A stretch of 18,508 bases of DNA from a virus (taxonomy: Duplodnaviria > Heunggongvirae > Uroviricota > Caudoviricetes): the IMG/VR virus record IMGVR_UViG_2563366928_000009, one strand, 5' to 3'. The notes beneath the pieces were generated by a model. It ran no database searches. It had not been told where the DNA came from and was given only the letters and a program-made list of their open reading frames with translations. Positions 1 to 15,514 of this stretch are shown in pieces. Every line of letters begins with the position of its first letter. Position 1 is the stretch's first letter. Both the position numbers and the translations under genes were made by a program.

Positions 1-1267
1 GCTTCAGAATGAAATTATATGGACGAAAAATCCCTCTATGCCCATATCCTTAACCTGACTGCACCATGGCAGGTTAAATCCCTTACCCTCGATGAAAATG
101 CAGGTTCCGTTACTGTTACAGTCGGAATTGCTGAAAATACTCAGTTAACCTGTCCGACCTGCAGGAAATCCTGTTCTGTTCACGATCACCGACATCGTAA
201 ATGGCGCCACCTTGATACCTGCCAGTTCATGACATTAGTAGAAGCCGATGTTCCCCGCGTTATGTGCCCGGAGCATGGCTGCCAGACTCTGCCTGTACCG
301 TGGGCAGGTTCCGGCAGTCGGTACACTCTGCTGTTCGAATCGTTCGTGCTCTCATGGCTTAAAATCAGCACCGTTGATGCGGTCAGAAAACAACTTAAAC
401 TTAGCTGGAATGCCGTTGACGGCATCATGACCCGCGCGGTTAAGCGAGGCCTGTCGCGGATTAAAAAGCCTTTATCAGTGCGTCATATGAATGTAGACGA
501 AGTCGCCTTTAAAAAAGGGCATAGGTATATAACCGTGGTATCTGATCGCGACGGGCGGGCACTGGCATTAACCGATGATCGTGGCACAGAGAGTCTTGCC
601 AGCTATCTCCGTTCGCTTACTGACAGTCAGTTGTTGGCCATCAAAACACTGTCGATGGACATGAATGCGGGCTATATAAGAGCAGCGCGTATCCATTTAC
701 CCAATGCGGTCGAGAAAATCGCCTTCGATCGCTTCCATGTGGCGAAGCAACTGGGCGAAGTGGTTGATAAAACCCGCCAGAATGAACATCCGCACCTCCC
801 TGTTGAAAGTCGTCGTCAGGCCAAAGGTACCCGCTTCCTGTGGCAGTACAGCGACAAATGGATGACTGAGTCCCGGCAGGAAAAGCTGATGTGGTTGCGG
901 GAACAGATGCAACAGACAAGCCAGTGCTGGACACTGAAAGAGCTGGCAAAAAATATCTGGGATCGCCCCTGGAGCACAGAACGCAGGAATGACTGGTTGC
1001 AGTGGATATCGCTGGCGTCTGAATGTGATGTGCCGATGATGAAAAACGCAGCGAAAACCATTAAAAAACGGTTATACGGAATACTGAATGCAATGCGTCA
1101 TCGCGTCTCGAATGGAAATGCGGAGGCGCTGAACAGCAAGATCAGACTGCTGAGGATAAAGGCCAGGGGATACCGAAACCGGGAACGCTTTAAACTGGGA
1201 GTTATGTTCCACTATGGGAAACTGAATATGGCGTACTGAGTCTTCCCACCATGATCGGGGAAGACCC
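1..1267 (+). mobile_element. ISL3-family insertion sequence, partial; left end lies outside the window and the right end is not resolved
   Basis: Contains the ISL3-like transposase gene at 19-1239. Only 18 bp precede the start codon, so the left inverted repeat is cut off. An 8-bp-stem inverted repeat (1240-1247 pairing with 1258-1265) follows the stop codon. No terminal inverted repeat could be identified by eye. Confidence 0.45.
19..1239 (+). CDS. ISL3-family transposase (N-terminal zinc finger plus DDE domain)
   Basis: 406-aa ORF with ATG at 19 and TGA at 1237-1239. N-terminal Cys/His cluster (CPTCRKSC...HDHRH...CPEHGC) resembles the zf-ISL3 finger. Central motifs DEVAFKKGHRYITVVSD, LSMDMNAGYI and AFDRFHVAKQLGEVVDKTRQNE match the ISL3 DDE transposase pattern as I remember it. 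Confidence 0.85.
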   Translation: MDEKSLYAHILNLTAPWQVKSLTLDENAGSVTVTVGIAENTQLTCPTCRKSCSVHDHRHRKWRHLDTCQFMTLVEADVPRVMCPEHGCQTLPVPWAGSGSRYTLLFESFVLSWLKISTVDAVRKQLKLSWNAVDGIMTRAVKRGLSRIKKPLSVRHMNVDEVAFKKGHRYITVVSDRDGRALALTDDRGTESLASYLRSLTDSQLLAIKTLSMDMNAGYIRAARIHLPNAVEKIAFDRFHVAKQLGEVVDKTRQNEHPHLPVESRRQAKGTRFLWQYSDKWMTESRQEKLMWLREQMQQTSQCWTLKELAKNIWDRPWSTERRNDWLQWISLASECDVPMMKNAAKTIKKRLYGILNAMRHRVSNGNAEALNSKIRLLRIKARGYRNRERFKLGVMFHYGKLNMAY

Positions 1268-1294
1268 ACATAACTACAGTTACAGGAGGGGGTT

Positions 1295-1543
1295 ATGCGT
1301 GTTGAGATCTGTATCGCTAAAGAAAAAATCAGCAAAATGCCGAAAGGTTCTGTTCCTGCTCTGCAGCAAGAAATGCTGCGCCGCATAGGTAAGCGATATG
1401 ACGATGCAGATGTGATCGTTAAATCTGCCAGCAATGATGGACTCACCATTTTAAGAGCCGTCGATAAAGAATCAGCACTGGAGTTCGTACAGGAAACACT
1501 ACAGGAAGTCTGGCAAACCGCGGACGACTGGTTTATGCAATAA
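1295..1543 (+). CDS. dinI: DinI-like DNA-damage-inducible protein
   Basis: 82-aa ORF with AGGAGG at 1284-1289, ATG at 1295 and TAA at 1541-1543. The sequence [11 protein letters not shown]...[12 protein letters not shown] follows the DinI family pattern (MRIEV.IAK...ETWESADDWF). Size and acidic C-terminus fit. Confidence 0.85.
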
Positions 1544-1634
1544 CGGGATCATAATCACTGTAATGACCTGTTTTGTATGACATTCTTAAAAGGCATAACA
1601 ACGAGCTTGTCGTTTCAAGCGACTTCTTCTGGTT

Positions 1635-1661
1635 GGGGAGCCTGAGTGCTCCCCTTTTTTT
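1635..1661 (+). terminator. Rho-independent terminator downstream of dinI
   Basis: GGGGAGC (1635-1641), loop CTGAGT, GCTCCCC (1648-1654), then seven T (1655-1661). On the minus strand the hairpin is not followed by a U-tract, so it is unidirectional. Confidence 0.6.
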
Positions 1662-1957
1662 CAGCTAAAAATCAGCATACAGCCATACAATCCCGCACAG
1701 GCCACCACCGGCACCACAAAATCCATCAGACTGGCCACATTCCACACACGCGGATCAAAACCGCCCCACCACGGCATGTTCTGTCTGTGACCATCACCAA
1801 AACGCTTAATCCAGCGATATTCTGCCTGGGTATGTTCTCGGGCAATAAAGAACGTACAACCCGCTATCGCTCCGTAAACCCAGTCACCGGTAATGCACCC
1901 GACCAGCCCCTGCACGGCTACTGCACAAATTGCATGAAGTATCGGCGTGATATCCAT
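1661..1957 (-). CDS. small hydrophobic protein (98 aa, two predicted transmembrane segments, possible lipobox LVGC); function unknown
   Basis: ATG at 1957 preceded by a GGGGAG Shine-Dalgarno; TGA at 1661-1663. It starts 9 nt after the stop of the upstream 92-aa gene. Hydrophobic N-terminal (ILHAICAVAVQGLVGCITGDWVYGAIAGCTFFIA) and C-terminal (LMDFVVPVVACAGLYGCMLIFS) segments. I do not recognise a family. Confidence 0.55.
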   Translation of the reverse strand: MDITPILHAICAVAVQGLVGCITGDWVYGAIAGCTFFIAREHTQAEYRWIKRFGDGHRQNMPWWGGFDPRVWNVASLMDFVVPVVACAGLYGCMLIFS

Positions 1958-1966
1958 CTGCTCCCC

Positions 1967-2245
1967 TTAAAACCACTCCCTGAGCGGGCGCTCTGGTGTA
2001 ACCACCCACTCACGGAACACGGATTCATCAAAGCCATCGTCAAGAAGACGAATATTAACAAAGTACCCTTCGTCTCGCGTGTATTCAGGCTCCCCGTCAG
2101 CAGAAACACCTGACTCACTGAACGTAAAACCAATCTCATCAACCAGAATGGCATTCTGCAGCTCTTCGTCCTCTTCCCAGTTAAGTTTCCTGAGAAATGC
2201 CCTGAAATCTGCTTTATCACTGAAACGCAACGTGAAATCTCTCAC
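1967..2245 (-). CDS. small acidic protein (92 aa) translationally coupled to the tail fiber gene; function unknown, possibly a fiber chaperone
   Basis: GTG start at 2245 overlaps the tail fiber TGA (GTGA overlap). A GGGGAGG Shine-Dalgarno lies 7 nt upstream. Open frame of 92 codons with no internal Met. Rich in Asp/Glu. Not similar to lambda Tfa by eye. Confidence 0.5.
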   Translation of the reverse strand: MRDFTLRFSDKADFRAFLRKLNWEEDEELQNAILVDEIGFTFSESGVSADGEPEYTRDEGYFVNIRLLDDGFDESVFREWVVTPERPLREWF

Positions 2246-4302
2246 TCCACAACCTCCCCAAGCTGCGCATCTGTTAGCTCTTTATGCCAGAGACGAAAAT
2301 TCCTCACATGCCCAAATAAATGGCGTAATCCTGCTGTAGTTTGTCCACCAATGCGAATGATTGCTGTACTCCGGATATATTCCCATGTGGTTTTTGTTTC
2401 GCTGGATATACGCCCGTTACTTACTGCACATGTAGACTGATCTGACTTTACACGCATCCCCATAACCATTTTTTTCAACGATGCGTTTTCGTTAACACGC
2501 CTATTTGATCCACCAATATCGCAATAAGGAAATCCGTCTGGCCCATCTGCCGAAGATCCGAAGCCAAGAATAATAGCCGCTCCGGTTTGATGACCGCCGG
2601 TATCAAAAACACGTGGCGCTGCATTTGGCGTTTTATACCAGTTCTTATGTACCTCACAAAGAACCGTAAAAGGAAGATTATAAAGATTATTCTTAATCGG
2701 AACTGTAACCATATCGCTTGCGCGCGTCGCCGCCGTCGTTCCTGATATAATAAAAGATGATACACACGAACCATCCTCAACCTGAGGGGTGGCCAGATAA
2801 ATATAGTCACCAGATTCAACGACACCACCTTTTTTTGGTGCGTATTGTATTGCAGAGGTTATGTAAGTTTCTTTACTTGCTTGAATCGTTGCCTCTACAA
2901 AAATCCAGCCCGTAGCTTCATCTTTGCTAACTCGTGCGGTGAGCCTGTCGGCAGCTACACCGGTGATTTCAACCAATAAAGACCGCGTATTAACAATGGC
3001 ATATCCAAGATTAGATGAAGCGCTGCCATCGAAGGCTTCAAACCTGATCCTTAACAGGAGTTCCAAATCCGTTTTAAATCTGCACGATGTCGTCACACAC
3101 TTATTATCGCCTGATACATCGACAGCCCCCGAGGTTGAAACTACTGCCATATTAAGGGTTGTACTTTGCCCAATTAATGATTCATTACAAACAAACTTTC
3201 CATAAGTAAAACCAAAACTATCAGTTCCAACCTCAGCGACATTCATATTTGCAGATTTACCCCAAGAAGCTGGAGTTGCTGAATTCAACATGTAGTTGGT
3301 TCGCTGACCTTCAATCAATAAACCTTCTTTTTCAAATCGTGGCTCATTAATTTCCGCCGTTTTCAGTTCGCCAGATTTGTTGATATATGTTGCCGTTGAT
3401 GCGCGACTGAAATTAACCTGTTTATCACTGGCAACCTGAACCACATTATCACCAATCTTCACTTTTTTATAACCCGGAGAATAGCCCGTAATCATATCCA
3501 GCGAATCATTAAAGGGTATCCACACATCCGGCAGCGGCTGTAAAACATATCTGTACGGCTCTGCTGTCTGGTTTGCGTATTCTCTGGCAGCATCTTCACT
3601 TGCTTTTGCTGCCGTCTGGCTTGCTGCCGATGCTTTCGCCGAGTTCGCCGCCGCTGTTTCGCTCACCTTTGCGTTGGCTTCACTGTCTTTGGCATTCGTC
3701 TCACTGGTTTTCGCTGCCGTCTGGCTGGATTTTGCGTTTTTTTCGCTGGCCTTTGTGGCTGTCTCGCTATTTTTCGCGCTGGTTTCTGATTTTTTGGCTG
3801 CTGTCGCGGAGTTTGCCGATGCAGTCTGCGAGGCCGCTGCCGCCTGTGCGCTGTTAGCTGCATTCGTTTCTGAGGTTTTCGCCGCATTCTTCGATGAGGC
3901 TGCTGCCGTTTCGGATTTCTTTGCCGCCGCTGCACTCTGTGATGACGCTCCGGCATGACGTGCCACTTCATTCACCATCAGCTCAAAACGGCGCAGTGCC
4001 TCCGGACGAACATCATCCTCCGTCATGGCGCCGAGAAAATCATTCAGCGTACCTGGTCTGGAACCTTCATAGACGGTAATGGTCCCGGCATGTGAAGGCG
4101 GAAAATCTTCAACCAGCAGGGTGACGCTGTACTGGCCATACTCAACATCCATGCTGTAACGCCCGGCTTCATCCGGATTTTCAGAGGCCACCGTGTTCAC
4201 CACCACCGTGCTGCTGGTCCGTCTGGCCTTCAGCACAATGGTGCAGTTCTGTACTGGTTTTCCTGTGCCATCTTTAAGCACGCCAGAAATTTTTACTGTC
4301 AT
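2242..4302 (-). CDS. stf: side tail fiber protein: lambda Stf-like N-terminus, Ala/Ser/Thr/Lys-rich shaft, divergent C-terminal domain
   Basis: 686-aa ORF, ATG at 4302. N-terminus MTVKISGVLKDGTGKPVQNCTIVLKARR...GRYSMDVEYGQYSV...PPSHAGTITVYE is near-identical in pattern to the lambda Stf N-terminus. The middle is low-complexity repeats (KKSETAA, KTSETNA). The C-terminal roughly 400 aa is unrelated to lambda Stf; its ending (FRLWHKELTDAQLGEVVE) is reminiscent of concanavalin/LamG-like folds, but that is memory-based. Confidence 0.9.
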   Translation of the reverse strand: MTVKISGVLKDGTGKPVQNCTIVLKARRTSSTVVVNTVASENPDEAGRYSMDVEYGQYSVTLLVEDFPPSHAGTITVYEGSRPGTLNDFLGAMTEDDVRPEALRRFELMVNEVARHAGASSQSAAAAKKSETAAASSKNAAKTSETNAANSAQAAAASQTASANSATAAKKSETSAKNSETATKASEKNAKSSQTAAKTSETNAKDSEANAKVSETAAANSAKASAASQTAAKASEDAAREYANQTAEPYRYVLQPLPDVWIPFNDSLDMITGYSPGYKKVKIGDNVVQVASDKQVNFSRASTATYINKSGELKTAEINEPRFEKEGLLIEGQRTNYMLNSATPASWGKSANMNVAEVGTDSFGFTYGKFVCNESLIGQSTTLNMAVVSTSGAVDVSGDNKCVTTSCRFKTDLELLLRIRFEAFDGSASSNLGYAIVNTRSLLVEITGVAADRLTARVSKDEATGWIFVEATIQASKETYITSAIQYAPKKGGVVESGDYIYLATPQVEDGSCVSSFIISGTTAATRASDMVTVPIKNNLYNLPFTVLCEVHKNWYKTPNAAPRVFDTGGHQTGAAIILGFGSSADGPDGFPYCDIGGSNRRVNENASLKKMVMGMRVKSDQSTCAVSNGRISSETKTTWEYIRSTAIIRIGGQTTAGLRHLFGHVRNFRLWHKELTDAQLGEVVE
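3590..3960. repeat. imperfect short tandem repeats inside the tail fiber gene (encode the Ala/Ser/Thr/Lys-rich shaft)
   Basis: Recurring GCTGCC/GTTTCG/TTTGC-type units on the plus strand, corresponding to repeated K-[ST]-SET-xA peptide motifs. Confidence 0.5.
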
Positions 4303-5120: not shown

Positions 5121-8100
5121 TCAGCTAATCGTGATGCCTGCAGTGGCTTTCTTCATCACAACAACCAGCAAATCGCTGATACTTGCTGTGGGATACCAGC
5201 CATTTACCCACCATGCTGATACAGAAAACTCCAGCGTCATGTGGCCGCGACCAGCAGGCATATCAATAACACCACTGTAAACCAGCGTATTATCCAGCGC
5301 GGTACGGTTATAAATTTCAGCACCGTTTTTCCGTACTATCAGGCGGCATGACGAATAAATATCGTTATTCTCCCGCTCATGTCTGGCACCGCTGAATGCC
5401 ACCGCCGGAATAACAATTTGCCGGTCAAACGGCTGATCGTCATAAACCCTGACGGTAATGGTCCCTGATGGCCACCTCTCCGGTGCACGGGAGTCACGGG
5501 GGAAAGCCTTACCCACTGTTTTAACGAGATCGCCTTCAATCTGGTTTGCAGACAGTTTCCCTCTGATGACACAGTTCTCGTTAATGGTGACATTATTGAG
5601 CGTGCCGGTATTCGCCGTGATGGCTCCACTGATATCCGCATTGCGGGCTGCCAGCCTGCCATCCGGCGTCAGGGAAAACGTAGGAGGATTGCCGGATGAC
5701 GTGATGCTCACCGCAAACAGTCGCTTCAGGAACACGTCGTTCATGAACAGCTGATTCCCCTGCGCCACAAACAGCGGCGTGGTGTTGCCATTCTCCGGGG
5801 TAATCATCGCGATACGGTCCGCCTGCAGCAGAATACTGCTCAGCGTCTGACCATCAACATCCTCAATCCCCGCACCAATCCCGGCCACATAGGGAATACC
5901 GTTTTTTGTTTTCTGCACCTTCAGCATATACATGGCATTCAGCTCATTGCGCGTGTCTGACTGAACCCGCTGGATTTGCTGTATGGTCACGGCCTGGTCA
6001 CCCAGTTTTTTATCCGTGGTCGAGGTAATTTCACTCCCTTTTTTATCCACGTACTGGCGGACCTGTGCTATCTGTCGGGCATTTTCTGACTGCCCCTGGC
6101 TGACAGTCTGTGAGATTTCACTGCTCACCCGGTCCACTTTCTGGCTCACCTGCGCGATGGCCAGTGTCTGGTCCTCATTCTTTTTCGCAACCAGCTGCGT
6201 GAGGCTGTTTTCCGCCTCCCCGATTTTCCGGGTCACTTCTGCGATATCCGTGTCCATCCGCTGACGGATGTCTTCTTCCAGTTGCGTGACCTCCGTACGC
6301 AGCGCTGAAGCATCAATGCGCTCTTTCAGTGCCTGGCCCAGAAGCGTCTCATCTATCAGACCACGGAAAAATTCCAGATACCCTTTTGCATCATTGCTGG
6401 CCTGCCCGCTGGCTTCCACAAATGCAGACTTGCCCACCAGGTTGACACTGCGCACATAAAACCAGAAATCCGTCCCCGGCTTAATCCGATCGCCCTGGAC
6501 AGTCCACTGACTGCCGGTCCCCAGATAACGGGCAGATTTTTCCACCTGTGCCGTGTTCGTGATGCGTTTTTCCGAAAACCAGAACTCAAACTGCACCGTC
6601 GGGTCATACACCGCCAGCACCGGTACCGCCGTTATCTGAAAATACCCCGGCGTCAGCTCAATGGTGGCGGGTTTTGCAGGCGCGTTAATCCGGAAGGTGG
6701 TGGTCGCAGGTTCGCCCTGCTGGCCGTAGCTGTTAATGGCCCGCACCGTCAGGGTGTATTCCCCCAGCGGCAGACCACTGAAACGGTGCTCCGTGTCTGC
6801 GGTGATGGCGGTGCTCACCAGACGGCTGTCTTCTCCGCTTCCGCTGGTCAGACGCAGACTGAAGCGCACACCCTTCACCACCCGCGGCGTGTCCCATTTC
6901 GCCTGTGCCAGATACTGACCGTCAGCTGCACTCACCTCCACCGTCAGGTGCTGCACTGCCGGTGGGATAACGCTGTTCAGGCTGCCTGACTGCGGCTCAA
7001 AGCTGGCCCCGTTATCCACAATGGCTTCTTTTTCCGGTACGTGCTGCACCGCCGTGATGGCGAACGTGCCGTCCGTGTTTTCCCGGATGGAGACACAGCG
7101 GAACAGGCGACGACGCAGTGACGGCAGGGAGAGTCCCCACACCCCGTATGTCTCCACACCATCCGGCAGGGTGCTGACCTGTATCCGGTCAGGCGCGGGG
7201 TGTGCGGTGATGGCCACGCTCGCCGGCTTACCGCTGCCGTTAATCAGATTAACAGTGGCCGTGCCGGTCTCCGGCAGTGTCACCTCCCGGTCCAGCGTCA
7301 GGGTACGGCTGGCGGCATCGATGGACAGGACACGTCCGCCGGTCATGGTCCCGGCATAGTCGTTATCACAGATTTCAATGATGTCACCGGGTGTGTGACG
7401 CAGCCCCTGTGACCCAAGCGTGAAATCCACCGTCTGCGTTTCCAGCAGTTCGGTCTTTATCACCCACAGCCCGGCACGGTGGGCCTGACCGCGGCTGGTA
7501 CAGCCGAACGCGTCCATCTTCAGCAGGTTGCATCCGTAGCGCAGTATGGCTTCCGGGTCTTCCACCAGTTCCGTGGAGGTCTGCCAGCCGTTCTGCGGGT
7601 CGGTGTAATTCACCTCCACTGCCGTGTGCCGGTCCTTCAGGGCACTGAAGCTGTAGCGGAAACCCACGCCGTTATCATCCACCACCACATCGCTGTTGGT
7701 GTACGGCCACACCACATCCGACGGGCGGTCCTGAACGAACGTCAGCGTCTGACCGTTCCATACCGGCATACAGCGCATCGCAGAGCAGAAATCACTGAGA
7801 ACGTCCCACGCCTTACGCTGTTGTGCCAGGTACGCATAAAAGGTCATCCGCGGCTCGGTCCCCCCGAAACCATCCGGGACCGTCTGGTCGCAGTACTGCC
7901 CGATGGCATACAGCGCCCACTTGTCCACATCCGCCGCCCCCAGACGTTTTCCCATGCCGTAGCGCGGGTGAGTCAGCATGTCCCACAGACACCAGGCCGG
8001 GTTGTTGCTGTATGCCGGTTTCAGGCTGCCGTCCCAGATACCACTGTACGTGCGTTTTTCCGGGTCATAGTTTGACGGCACCTGGATGATGCGACCGCGG

Positions 8101-8813
8101 ATATGGTAGTTCACCGTCATCTGCTGGCCGCCGAACTGCTCCGCATCCACCTGCAGCCCCACAATGGCCGTGTTCGGGTAGCACTGTTTCACATCGATGA
8201 TTTCGGTGTATGACGACCACAGCGTCTTATTCTGCAGCTGGTCCGTGGTGCTGTCCGCCGTCTCCCTGACCATCCGGATGTTAAAGGGCCGGGGAGGCAG
8301 ATTATCCAGAATCACCGAGGCCAGGAACTGCGAGGTGGTCTTGCCGTTAATGGTGACATCCTTTTCCGTCACCCAGCGGCCATTACGCTGTAACTGAATC
8401 AGAATCCGGACAGAGGAAGGATTACGGTCGCCCTTTGACGTGGTCTGCACCAGTGACTGCACCCCGAAGGTAACCCGCAGGCGGTCAATGTTCGCGGACG
8501 TAATGGTGCGCGTCACCGGTTTTGCCTTCGTCACTTCCACGCCCAGTCCGGTTTCAGCTCCGGAGGACTCAAAGCCTTCCGGTGGTGTCTGCTCCTGCTC
8601 CCCGGCACGCCAGACCGCGGTCACACCGTGTATCACGGGATTACCGTCCGTGTCCGTCAGCGGGGTTTTGTTCACCAGGATACTCTGCAGTCCCTTCACC
8701 GGACCTTCTATCGGTCCCTCACCAATCGCATCAATCACACTCATCATCTGCGTGGATTTGAGATTATCCTTCGCCTCACGAGGCGTGTGTGCCTTACCGC
8801 CACCTTTTCCCAT
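5121..8813 (-). CDS. J: tail tip host-specificity protein J (central tail fiber)
   Basis: 1230-aa ORF, ATG at 8813 with a GGGGAAGG RBS. Long stretches are near-identical to lambda J ([22 protein letters not shown]..., [50 protein letters not shown]). It has a longer coiled-coil segment than lambda J and a diverged C-terminal receptor-binding region. Confidence 0.95.
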
Positions 8814-8919
8814 ACAGCCTTCCCCTGAATAAATTAACCGCCACTTGCCATTCCGTACAGAAGTCGGATATCCTTCGCCCGAAAAGCATGAAACACATTT
8901 CTGCCATGCTAAAGAGAAA

Positions 8920-8952
8920 CCCCGGTATCAGCAGATACCGGGGTTTTCTTTC
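8920..8952. terminator. strong hairpin with U-rich tracts on both sides (potentially bidirectional terminator) in the I-J spacer
   Basis: 10-bp perfect stem CCCCGGTATC (8920-8929), loop AGCA, GATACCGGGG (8934-8943). Followed by TTTTCTTTC on the plus strand and by the equivalent of TTTCTCTTT on the minus strand. Confidence 0.55.
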
Positions 8953-9018
8953 ATGCCCACCGATAATCCTGTTGGTTAAAACCGGTAATGGCATAAAAAT
9001 TCTGAATATCTTCACATT

Positions 9019-9046
9019 TTCACAAACTGACTGTGGCGCGTATAAT
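9019..9046 (+). promoter_or_regulatory. near-consensus sigma70 promoter on the plus strand, antisense to the tail operon
   Basis: -35 TTCACA (9019-9024), 16-bp spacer, -10 TATAAT (9041-9046). Lies in AT-rich non-coding DNA between I and J. Predicted transcription start near 9052-9054. Confidence 0.5.
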
Positions 9047-9052
9047 TTCTCT

Positions 9053-9149
9053 GCGTTAATTTTTTTGTCGTGATATAAGAATAATTCCTTACACTTAATC
9101 TTCGTAACTCTCCCGCAGTTCCTGTCCGCGATCACTGCGGGATTTTTTT
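9053..9149 (+). ncRNA. candidate small RNA of about 95 nt (promoter to terminator); unnamed
   Basis: Bounded by the promoter at 9019-9046 and the terminator at 9111-9149. No plausible ORF or RBS inside. AU-rich 5' portion followed by a terminator stem-loop and U-tract, an architecture typical of Hfq-binding sRNAs. Inferred, not demonstrated. Confidence 0.35.
9111..9149 (+). terminator. strong Rho-independent terminator on the plus strand
   Basis: TCCCGCAGT (9111-9119), 14-nt loop, ACTGCGGGA (9134-9142), then TTTTTTT (9143-9149). On the minus strand the hairpin is preceded by A's and not followed by U's, so it is plus-strand specific. Confidence 0.65.
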
Positions 9150-9156
9150 ATTCTTT

Positions 9157-9837
9157 TTACCCCTGCCGCCCGATAACCACGACCTTTCCGCCCCCGCCTT
9201 CATCACGGGTGCTGATGTCCTGGGATATACGGCGGGAGCCAACCAGCATTTCCCCGTAAGGCACCGGCATCGGGTTCCCCTGGGCAATCATGTTATCCAG
9301 CGAGGAAAAGTACGTGTTCTGTCTGCCGTTATCCGTTGCGCGGTAATCCGGTGTTTTTGCCTTCGGGGCCAGCATCTGGGCCACACCGCCCAGTATCATG
9401 CTGGCCCCCAGTGAAAACAGCATCGTGGTGGCAGAAAAACCGCCGGCACTCAGGGCTGTACCCCATAACACCATTGATGCCCCGGCCGTGAAGAAAGAGC
9501 CCACGATGGCTGCCGCCCCCAGCACAATCTGCAGTCCACCCTTTCCGGCCCCGGCCAGTCGCGGCACAATGTGGATGACCGTTCCCTCACCCAGCTGTTC
9601 GTGAAGACGGGCGTACACCGCCTCCGGTGCCGTGTCATCACCGGCAATACGTATCTGGTACCAGCCTTCGTTCATCTGACGGCGAAAGCCCGGCATCTGC
9701 ATCGACAGGGCGCGAATGGCTTCCGCTGCCGTGTTCACATACAGGCTGAGGCGGCGGCCAAATCGTTGTAAATCCCCGTGAAGGCGGATGCGTGCCAGTG
9801 GCGGTGACGCCAGACTGAATGCGTTCGTCGTTGCCAT
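9157..9837 (-). CDS. I: tail assembly protein I
   Basis: 226-aa ORF, ATG at 9837. MATTNAFSLASPPLARIRLHGDLQRFGRRLSLYV...LGASMILGGVAQMLAPKAKTP...NTYFSSLDNM matches lambda I closely. The 5' end overlaps the 3' end of K by about 100 bp, as in lambda. Confidence 0.92.
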   Translation of the reverse strand: MATTNAFSLASPPLARIRLHGDLQRFGRRLSLYVNTAAEAIRALSMQMPGFRRQMNEGWYQIRIAGDDTAPEAVYARLHEQLGEGTVIHIVPRLAGAGKGGLQIVLGAAAIVGSFFTAGASMVLWGTALSAGGFSATTMLFSLGASMILGGVAQMLAPKAKTPDYRATDNGRQNTYFSSLDNMIAQGNPMPVPYGEMLVGSRRISQDISTRDEGGGGKVVVIGRQG

Positions 9838-14834: not shown

Positions 14835-15514
14835 TTATGACTGTGCAGCAAGGCTCAGCGCGTCTTCCAGTCCCGCAAAAGGATCCGCTTCCGGCTTGTC
14901 CTCATCCTCGCCCCAGCAGAGCATGGCGTCCTTCAGTGAAACATTCATCCCCTGCGCCCCGAAAACCGCTTTCACGATCTGCGCATTACGGATATCCCCG
15001 CGCTCATCGCCCAGCGGGGACACCCTGTCGAACTCCATCCACATCATCGCCTCGCTCGCACTCAGACTGTGGCGCAGTTCGGATAAGGTGCGCCCCAGAC
15101 GGAGCGCAAGTCGCATCAGAAAGCGAATTTCCGGGCGGGCTACTTTTTTCTTGCCGACTCAGCATCGGTGATCAGTTCCAGTGCCTGACGCAGCAACCGG
15201 GCATGCACCGGACCATAGACAGCCAGCACCTGCTCGCGATCATCTGCGGTGAACACACGTTTCATGTCCTTATCACACAGAACATCACAGAACAACGTCA
15301 CATCCGCCTCCAGGTTACGGCGGGTTTTTGCCACCACCGACAGGGTATCGTCACCCGCATCATCGCCATTAAGAACTTCCCGCCAAAGATACCAGGCCTC
15401 TGCCGAAGGCTCGCGCAGCACCACGCTGACATTCCCCCATTCCGGCACCTTCACCGTTTTATGACGAAATCCGGACAGTCTGGCCAGCGCCAGTGTTTTC
15501 AGATCTTTTGCCAT
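14835..15514 (-). CDS. GT: tail assembly chaperone G-T fusion, made by a programmed -1 ribosomal frameshift at the end of G
   Basis: The G frame ends ...ESARKK then TAG (15140-15142). A slippery heptamer A AAA AAG occupies 15143-15149 on the minus strand. A -1 shift continues as VARPEIRFLMRLALRLGRTLSELR... to TAA at 14835-14837. Position between V and H matches lambda G/G-T. Confidence 0.7.
15140..15514 (-). CDS. G: tail assembly chaperone G (zero-frame product)
   Basis: Preferred start is the ATG at 15514 (MAKDLKTLALARLSGF...), with an AAGGA Shine-Dalgarno 7 nt upstream and 13 nt after the V stop. The alternative in-frame ATG at 15541 overlaps V and lacks a good RBS. Stop TAG at 15140-15142. 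Confidence 0.75.
   Translation of the reverse strand: MAKDLKTLALARLSGFRHKTVKVPEWGNVSVVLREPSAEAWYLWREVLNGDDAGDDTLSVVAKTRRNLEADVTLFCDVLCDKDMKRVFTADDREQVLAVYGPVHARLLRQALELITDAESARKK
15143..15149 (-). promoter_or_regulatory. -1 programmed frameshift slippery heptamer A AAA AAG (G to G-T)
   Basis: An X XXY YYZ motif in the G frame immediately before the G stop codon; the -1 frame downstream is open and continues into the T reading frame. Confidence 0.65.

Follow-up and report, generated by a model that had tools for sequence, protein, structure and literature searches.

A Prophage Spacer between Tail Genes I and J Probably Carries a Small RNA Gene of the PasB Family

Introduction

What is the extra DNA that separates tail genes I and J in this lambdoid prophage? 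The stretch examined here (18,508 nucleotides in full, hereafter the window) corresponds to the late region of a lambdoid prophage from E. coli, in which the tail operon lies on the minus strand. By the coordinates of its ORFs, the I-J spacer measures 343 bp (8814-9156), whereas the same two genes in lambda are 60 bp apart (I ends at 15444 and J starts at 15505). The spacer is also rich in A and T, with a GC fraction of 0.38-0.46 over positions 8800-9100 compared to 0.56-0.63 in the flanks. These values agree with the remarks of a first-pass annotation of the window, which proposed that the plus strand of the spacer encodes an Hfq-type sRNA of about 95 nucleotides with its own promoter and terminator.

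Over the spacer, the window is 100% identical to the corresponding region of SK1144, where the neighboring genes are annotated as gpJ and a tail assembly protein and the prophage adjoins potB. Farther out, beyond the tail-fibre gene, positions 1-2300 of the window (188-2487 of locus L001) correspond to tail fibre assembly gene fragments in the 100% identical RefSeq region. These fragments are split by a class I SAM-dependent methyltransferase, and potB is a host gene at the prophage edge.

Results and Discussion

An Insert with Its Own Promoter and Terminator

The features that we recognize at this locus are listed in Table 1. Read on the plus strand, antisense to the tail operon, the spacer contains TTCACA-16-TATAAT at the position where the first-pass annotation had placed a promoter. 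This is the best of three promoter-like sites in 2 kb, for which shuffled sequences yield 1.1. The terminator is present as well, with positions 9111-9119 pairing with 9134-9142 and T7 following at 9143-9149. The longest complete ORF inside the transcript has at most 11 codons, which bears out the earlier judgment that no convincing coding frame fits within the promoter-terminator unit. Chance is ruled out because the unit is conserved: more than 1,400 complete E. coli genomes carry it in their I-J spacer. This argument does not draw on the statistics of a single window.

Table 1. Features of the I-J spacer and its neighbors, in window coordinates
Feature	Position	Strand	Basis
Tail tip / host-specificity gene J	5121..8813	-	ORF list; gpJ label in 100% identical RefSeq region
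Long-type left module, J start to sRNA promoter	8814..8992	.	Identity of 99% or more across 1,442 complete E. coli genomes
Strong hairpin, T-rich tail on each strand, terminator-like in both directions	8917..8951	.	Sequence and fold
Invariant box TCTGA-N6-TCACA, candidate site for a CRP-type regulator	9001..9016	+	Conservation across alleles
Sigma-70 promoter, -35 TTCACA, 16-bp spacer, -10 TATAAT	9019..9046	+	11 of 12 consensus positions
Predicted primary sRNA, 97 nt, window allele of PasB family	9053..9149	+	Start inferred from -10
Stretch matching the published 83-nt PasB species	9066..9149	+	PasB coordinates mapped via locus L004 and alignment
Conserved single-stranded blocks AAUAAUUCCUUA (9080-9091) and CUUAAUCUUC (9094-9103), candidate seed	9080..9103	+	55 alleles and fold
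Predicted Rho-independent terminator and Hfq-binding 3' end	9111..9149	+	9-bp stem 9111-9119/9134-9142 and U7
Tail assembly gene I	9157..9837	-	ORF list; RefSeq start at the position equivalent to 9738

A search with Rfam 15 returned nothing at the gathering threshold and, at a permissive one, no more than hairpin matches of chance level, so this collection holds no model for the family; as a positive control, AgvB was detected in a control locus. The models for AgvB, AsxR, and Esr41 (RF02702, RF02703, and RF02676) have no match in 8700-9300 at E values up to 10, and on these grounds, together with location, the three identities were rejected. Given these results and the absence of a GcvB-target CACAACA motif, the RNA is not a GcvB mimic, as had been surmised.

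Resemblance to PasB of EPEC

The closest published counterpart is PasB (pathogenicity-associated sRNA B), which is encoded by prophage PP6 of EPEC O127:H6 strain E2348/69 (Pearl Mizrahi et al. 2021, PMC8550237). PasB is an 83-nt RNA from the minus strand of NC_011601 (1466343..1466261; PMC8550237 tables S2 and S6) that was detected by RIL-seq and as an 83-nt Northern band. It takes part in 37 RIL-seq interactions, is the second RNA partner in 99-100% of its chimeras, and changes in abundance between delta-hfq and wild-type cells with log2FC values of -6.8 and -2.4 in two growth conditions (PMC8550237).

In E2348/69, the PasB gene lies between I (end 1466255) and J (start 1466496), antisense to both, and its 3' end is at 1466261. 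The order of elements is the same as in the window: the I stop codon comes first, followed by the 3' end of the sRNA, the sRNA itself, the promoter, a hairpin, and the start of J. The promoter blocks are identical at 56 of 60 positions (93%), each with the TCTGA-N6-TCACA box and TATAAT, and the 3' arm of the terminator plus U7 is identical over 25 nt. Over the transcript, 77 of 104 positions agree, as do 65 of 89 in the PasB-equivalent region (73-74%); outside the terminator, the identity is about 62%. The two RNAs are similar in length and have UCCUU and AUCUUC blocks in common, and the published PasB Northern probe matches at 20 of its 23 nt (9125-9144).

Several distinctions are also evident. 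The candidate seed reads UUAAUCUUCG in the window and UUGAUCUUCA in PasB, and the block at 9094-9103 has one difference from E2348/69 inside the UUAAUCUUC core (UUGAUCUUC). The terminator loop is 4-5 nt longer in the window allele, and the left module of the spacer is of a long type (179 bp) in the window compared to a short type in E2348/69. However, intermediate and recombinant alleles connect the window type to PasB. Given an identity of only about 62% between the bodies outside the terminator, the two RNAs need not have the same targets.

We conclude that the AT-rich I-J insert is most likely a self-contained PasB-family sRNA gene, antisense to the tail operon. This family has been described before, and the window carries a common, unnamed sequence variant rather than a new kind of element. 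Homology to PasB thus lends support to the plus-strand Hfq-type sRNA that had been predicted. The family, which the first-pass annotation had left unassigned, indeed has no Rfam 15 model, but it is the published family of PasB. Expression, Hfq dependence, and many RNA partners are demonstrated in relatives only; for the window allele itself, we infer expression, the transcription start, the seed, CRP control, and the existence of targets.

The predicted length needs some revision. Although the promoter and terminator stand as described, the published homologues (83 nt and about 85 nt) are 10-14 nt shorter than the transcript expected from a start at 9053. Furthermore, the published 5' end of PasB lies 22 nt downstream of its -10 element, compared to a usual distance of 7 nt. 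It seems that either the RNA is processed at the U-run or the published, coverage-based 5' coordinate is imprecise. Since the homologues measure 83-85 nt, the abundant species from the window allele may have a length near 84 nt (9066-9149) instead of 97 nt.

EcOnc22, EcOnc23, and EcOnc24 of EHEC Sakai

A second set of relatives is likely to have been reported from EHEC strain Sakai. EcOnc22 of prophage Sp15 is an Hfq-CRAC sRNA that runs at about 85 nt on a Northern blot and is destabilized in delta-hfq cells, and EcOnc23 (Sp14) and EcOnc24 (Sp11) are repeats of it (Tree et al. 2014, PMC4104026 Table S2). The three peaks fall in the I-J spacers of Sp15, Sp14, and Sp11, on the antisense strand, and the three spacers hold identical PasB-like units (L005 2192-2431, L006 1123-1362, and L007 1173-1412). 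The published coordinates refer to an older Sakai record and need to be shifted from NC_002695.1 to NC_002695.2. The size of this shift (+137 to +146 bp) was measured at 1.94 Mb, where the AgvB1 peak can be compared to the Rfam AgvB match, and not at the EcOnc loci. With this extrapolated offset of about +140 bp, the EcOnc22 peak is placed inside the PasB-like body.

Like the window allele, the EcOnc22-24 units carry the same box, a 5' end composed of GC(A/G)UUA and a U-run, the UUAAUCUUC block, and a CCCGCAG/CUGCGGG terminator with U7. They differ in having a poor -35 element (TTCCGG) and AATAAT as the -10 element, and their identity to the window over the transcript is 71%. Based on position, sequence, and an inferred coordinate offset, EcOnc22-24 very probably belong to the PasB family.

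No EcOnc homologue is listed for PasB by Pearl Mizrahi et al., and the term EcOnc is absent from the text of Zhu et al. In a 2021 review, the targets of EcOnc22 are entered as unknown. One other Sakai candidate, EcOnc36 (Sp5), was rejected as a member of the family; its position is within a large ORF, outside any I-J spacer.

The family has therefore been known experimentally since 2014 (EHEC) and 2021 (EPEC), and was rediscovered here from raw sequence. What the present analysis adds is that PasB and EcOnc22-24 appear to be one family, and that this family is far more diverse than the few-nucleotide variants reported, with at least 55 transcribed alleles, mosaics, and tandem arrays.

Distribution and Diversity of the Alleles

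In BLAST searches, 1,662 of 5,426 complete E. coli genomes contained the spacer, as did Stx-converting and other phages. When only the transcribed part was used as the query, window-type bodies were recovered from 1,427 of the 5,426 genomes and E2348-type bodies from 1,223. The window-type bodies are at least 99% identical in 634 genomes and 90-95% identical in 545, O157:H7 strains among them. The window allele is the commonest in the viral sample, and it is very common in extraintestinal E. coli. Strains that carry exactly this allele include ATCC 25922, CE10, and SK1144.

Outside E. coli, a scan of one genome per species recovered the unit only from E. albertii and from two short contigs labelled Parendozoicomonas and Streptomyces, which agrees with the reported restriction of PasB to Escherichia and Shigella. 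The two short contigs, from assemblies of Parendozoicomonas haliclonae (L023) and Streptomyces flavalbus (L025), carry E. coli-type PasB units and are probably contaminating E. coli DNA.

Zhu et al. described PasB variants that differ by only a few nucleotides, and their survey of bacterial genomes used BLAST with a word size of 28 and more than 75% query coverage. The longest word common to PasB and the window allele is 25 nt. Because this is shorter than the word size, the window allele was probably missed by the published survey. A literature search with sequence strings of the window allele gave no match.

Twenty fetched loci and two scans of viral contigs yielded 62 distinct units with 55 distinct transcribed sequences. 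These alleles are mosaics in which promoter types, body types, and terminator loops occur in many combinations. Spacer lengths range from 234 to 424 bp, and neither these differences nor the frequent indels between alleles are multiples of three. The loops and the 5' body vary, whereas the features described in the next section are retained. Thus, conservation across 55-62 distinct alleles fits an sRNA gene, as judged from comparison of sequences.

The same alleles bear on whether the spacer could encode a small protein instead. Candidate frames do exist on the minus strand (113 aa at 8794-9135 and 66 aa at 8794-8994) and on the plus strand (94 aa at 8789-9073), and at the equivalent position of phage ASU11 a hypothetical protein, gp9c, has been annotated. 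However, no ORF is conserved on either strand across the alleles. The strand, position, and length of those with at least 25 aa are not constant, and two alleles lack them altogether, while the spacers themselves differ in length without regard for reading frame. The ORFs also cross perfect hairpins, the three in the window have no Pfam match, and the RefSeq annotation is empty here. We therefore regard a protein-coding role as highly improbable.

In some spacers, two or three different units are arrayed in tandem (L012, L015, L064, L069, and L074), for example at L012 236-395 and 415-552 and at L015 1-80, 165-301, and 387-522. Every unit in these arrays is equipped with the TCTGA-N6-TCACA box and a terminator of its own; in the non-PasB units, AACUCCUUAAGG is found together with a CUCCCG...CGGGAG terminator. 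A different arrangement is seen at L146 1560-1765 and in 16 identical viral contigs, in which a window-like sRNA body lacks the promoter. There, the 3' flank and terminator of a sodC-like ORF (543-1577) take the place of the sequence upstream of GUUAAUG, and L146 looks like a rearranged prophage.

Conserved Features of the Transcript

A consensus fold of the 55 alleles (RNAalifold) reveals the terminator as the sole conserved structure. Its stem is paired in 53-55 of the 55 alleles, and its loop varies. Directly upstream are two conserved blocks, AAUAA(C/U)UCCUUA and (G/C)UUAAUCUUC, which are unpaired in the consensus fold and also in the 84-nt fold of the window RNA. At the other end of the RNA, the 5'-terminal GCGUUA and the U-run that follows are conserved across alleles. 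The UCCUUA block resembles the anti-Shine-Dalgarno end of 16S rRNA.

A conserved, single-stranded seed just 5' of the terminator has been proposed for PasB (Zhu, Shabalina & Storz 2026 preprint). The block CUUAAUCUUC at 9094-9103, which is unpaired and conserved, has the properties expected of such a seed. Sites complementary to the seed were sought within the window, where the search returned only the gene itself and one chance match with two mismatches.

A CRP-Like Box Upstream of the Promoter

Besides the terminator, the most conserved block of the spacer is TCTGA-N6-TCACATT (9001-9018), as determined from 18 units that were gathered by similarity of the body alone. Both half-sites of the box are invariant in 18 of 18 units. 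A pattern scan based solely on the body gave 124 copies, 107 of which have the exact box; the 6-bp spacer between the half-sites occurs in five versions. All of the remaining 17 copies belong to one clonal variant with a replaced promoter, adjacent to a sodC-like gene. The core promoter is preserved less evenly; the -10 element is largely kept across alleles, but the -35 element is not (for example, TTCCGG in Sp15).

Read on the opposite strand, the box is AAATGTGA-N6-TCAGA (that is, TGTGA-N6-TCAGA), which matches 9 of 10 core positions of the CRP consensus and has an AAA flank. Such a CRP-like site occurs once in the window, where 0.68 would be expected by chance. The -10 element begins 32.5 bp downstream of the center of the box (9008.5), which places the box at about -44.5 relative to the inferred start at 9053, and not at the canonical class II position of -41.5.

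Growth conditions offer a circumstantial indication. PasB reaches higher levels in static overnight LB cultures than in DMEM at mid-log phase, and the opposite pattern is seen for the CRP-repressed sRNA Spot 42. This would fit activation by CRP, with growth phase and oxygen as confounding factors. Control of this promoter by CRP is a hypothesis suggested by the sequence rather than a finding, but the invariant box points to a testable regulatory input.

These patterns of conservation also allow another possibility to be weighed, in which the unit is a functionless, decaying relic of an inserted extra gene whose promoter and terminator are fossils or transcriptional insulators. Prophage regions do decay, and some copies of the unit are damaged, as with a G-to-T change that breaks the stem in strain 95JB1 and with the clonal variant that lost its promoter. 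However, the box, the -10 element, the seed blocks, and the terminator are kept in many recombinant alleles while their neighbors vary. The unit is also carried by inducible phages such as ASU11 and by Stx phage genomes, and its relatives rank among the most abundant Hfq-bound accessory sRNAs. A relic is thus an unlikely explanation, and we favor a functional sRNA gene.

The Left Module and the Hairpin before J

Between J and the sRNA promoter lies a left module, for which a search for diverged relatives of the long type found none. Left modules pair with either body type, the long one being present in the window and in phage ASU11 and the short one in E2348/69 and in a Stx2c phage. The hairpin within the long module was noted in the first-pass annotation; its 10-bp core (8920-8929/8934-8943) is present, and the pairing extends to 8917-8946. 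It folds with a dG of -28.7 to -31.6 kcal/mol (z -6 to -7).

The proposal that this hairpin insulates J is only partly supported. Its T-rich tails occur on both strands as described, but lambda, which has no sRNA here, also has a tail-sense hairpin. In the 60-bp spacer of lambda, the only such element is a tail-sense hairpin, which lies upstream of J and ends in a T-rich tail (L184 846-905). Short-type E. coli spacers contain an analogous tail-sense terminator before J (for example, L005 2235-2265), and one compensatory C-G to T-A change distinguishes the types; in the long module of the window, the bidirectional hairpin takes the place of this terminator. These observations suggest that a terminator or processing element is conserved between I and J, and the sRNA unit looks like an extra gene inserted between the I stop codon and this hairpin.

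A further feature of the long module is a weak promoter-like site on the plus strand, TTGCCA-18-TATCCT (8845-8874). Downstream of it come a stem-loop and then the strong hairpin, with its U-rich tail (8881-8951). The latter two elements span 71 nt and fold with a dG of -31.6 kcal/mol (z -7.2). Judging from sequence, this arrangement could represent a second small transcript.

Possible Functions of the RNA

We propose that the sigma-70 promoter, located just downstream of the CRP-like box, would drive a transcript from about position 9053 to the U7 tract at 9149. The terminator hairpin and poly-U tail would be the Hfq-binding part of the resulting sRNA, which would act in trans by limited base pairing, with the unpaired stretch 5' of the terminator (UUCCUUA...UUAAUCUUC) serving as the seed. 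Pairing assisted by Hfq would then occlude the ribosome-binding sites of trans targets, and seed-complementary sites in these targets might read AAGGA(G/A) or GAAGAUUAA. Because the conserved stretch resembles an anti-Shine-Dalgarno sequence, occlusion of ribosome-binding sites is the likely mode of action. The many alleles amount to natural seed-swap variants that could be used to find targets.

Given the location of the gene, an RNA that acts mainly in cis should also be considered. The transcript is fully complementary to the I-J intergenic part of the late tail mRNA, and pairing could lead to cleavage by RNase III or could in some other way uncouple or dampen expression of J and of lom and the tail-fibre genes downstream. 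Without exception, the gene occupies this one spacer and runs antisense to the tail operon, and a tail-sense, terminator-like hairpin always lies between the unit and J. However, the RNA reaches neither the I stop codon, from which its 3' end at 9149 is separated by 7 nt (stop codon at 9157-9159), nor the ribosome-binding site of J, which is more than 220 nt away. A purely cis role would not need single-stranded blocks to be conserved in alleles that have otherwise diverged. In addition, a lysogen makes no late mRNA, and during lytic growth the late mRNA is expected to far outnumber the sRNA. PasB, moreover, has 37 trans partners in RIL-seq (PMC8550237). We therefore consider a mainly cis-acting RNA improbable, and prefer action in trans; some cis-antisense role is possible alongside it, as the two are compatible.

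A broader interpretation can be offered tentatively, and we would not yet wager on it. The I-J spacer might be a dedicated slot for sRNA cassettes composed of recombining modules, sometimes in tandem, with PasB and EcOnc22 as parts of one large, catabolite-controlled set of RNAs that manipulate the host. The modules may be a promoter with its CRP-like box, a variable 5' body, an anti-Shine-Dalgarno-like seed, and an Hfq-binding terminator. Under this interpretation, the window allele would be the commonest ExPEC form, missed by the survey.

Comparison with Other Prophage sRNAs

The PasB family resembles AgvB, AsxR, and Esr41 in general design. All are short, Hfq-dependent, horizontally acquired sRNAs that have their own promoter and terminator and reside on mobile elements of E. 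coli. Their locations are distinct, however. AgvB and AsxR are encoded downstream of the late promoter PR', in an extra-gene slot of lambdoid phages, whereas the unit in the window is situated within the tail operon. Likewise, Esr41 is encoded in SpLE1, in contrast to the I-J spacer that houses the window unit.
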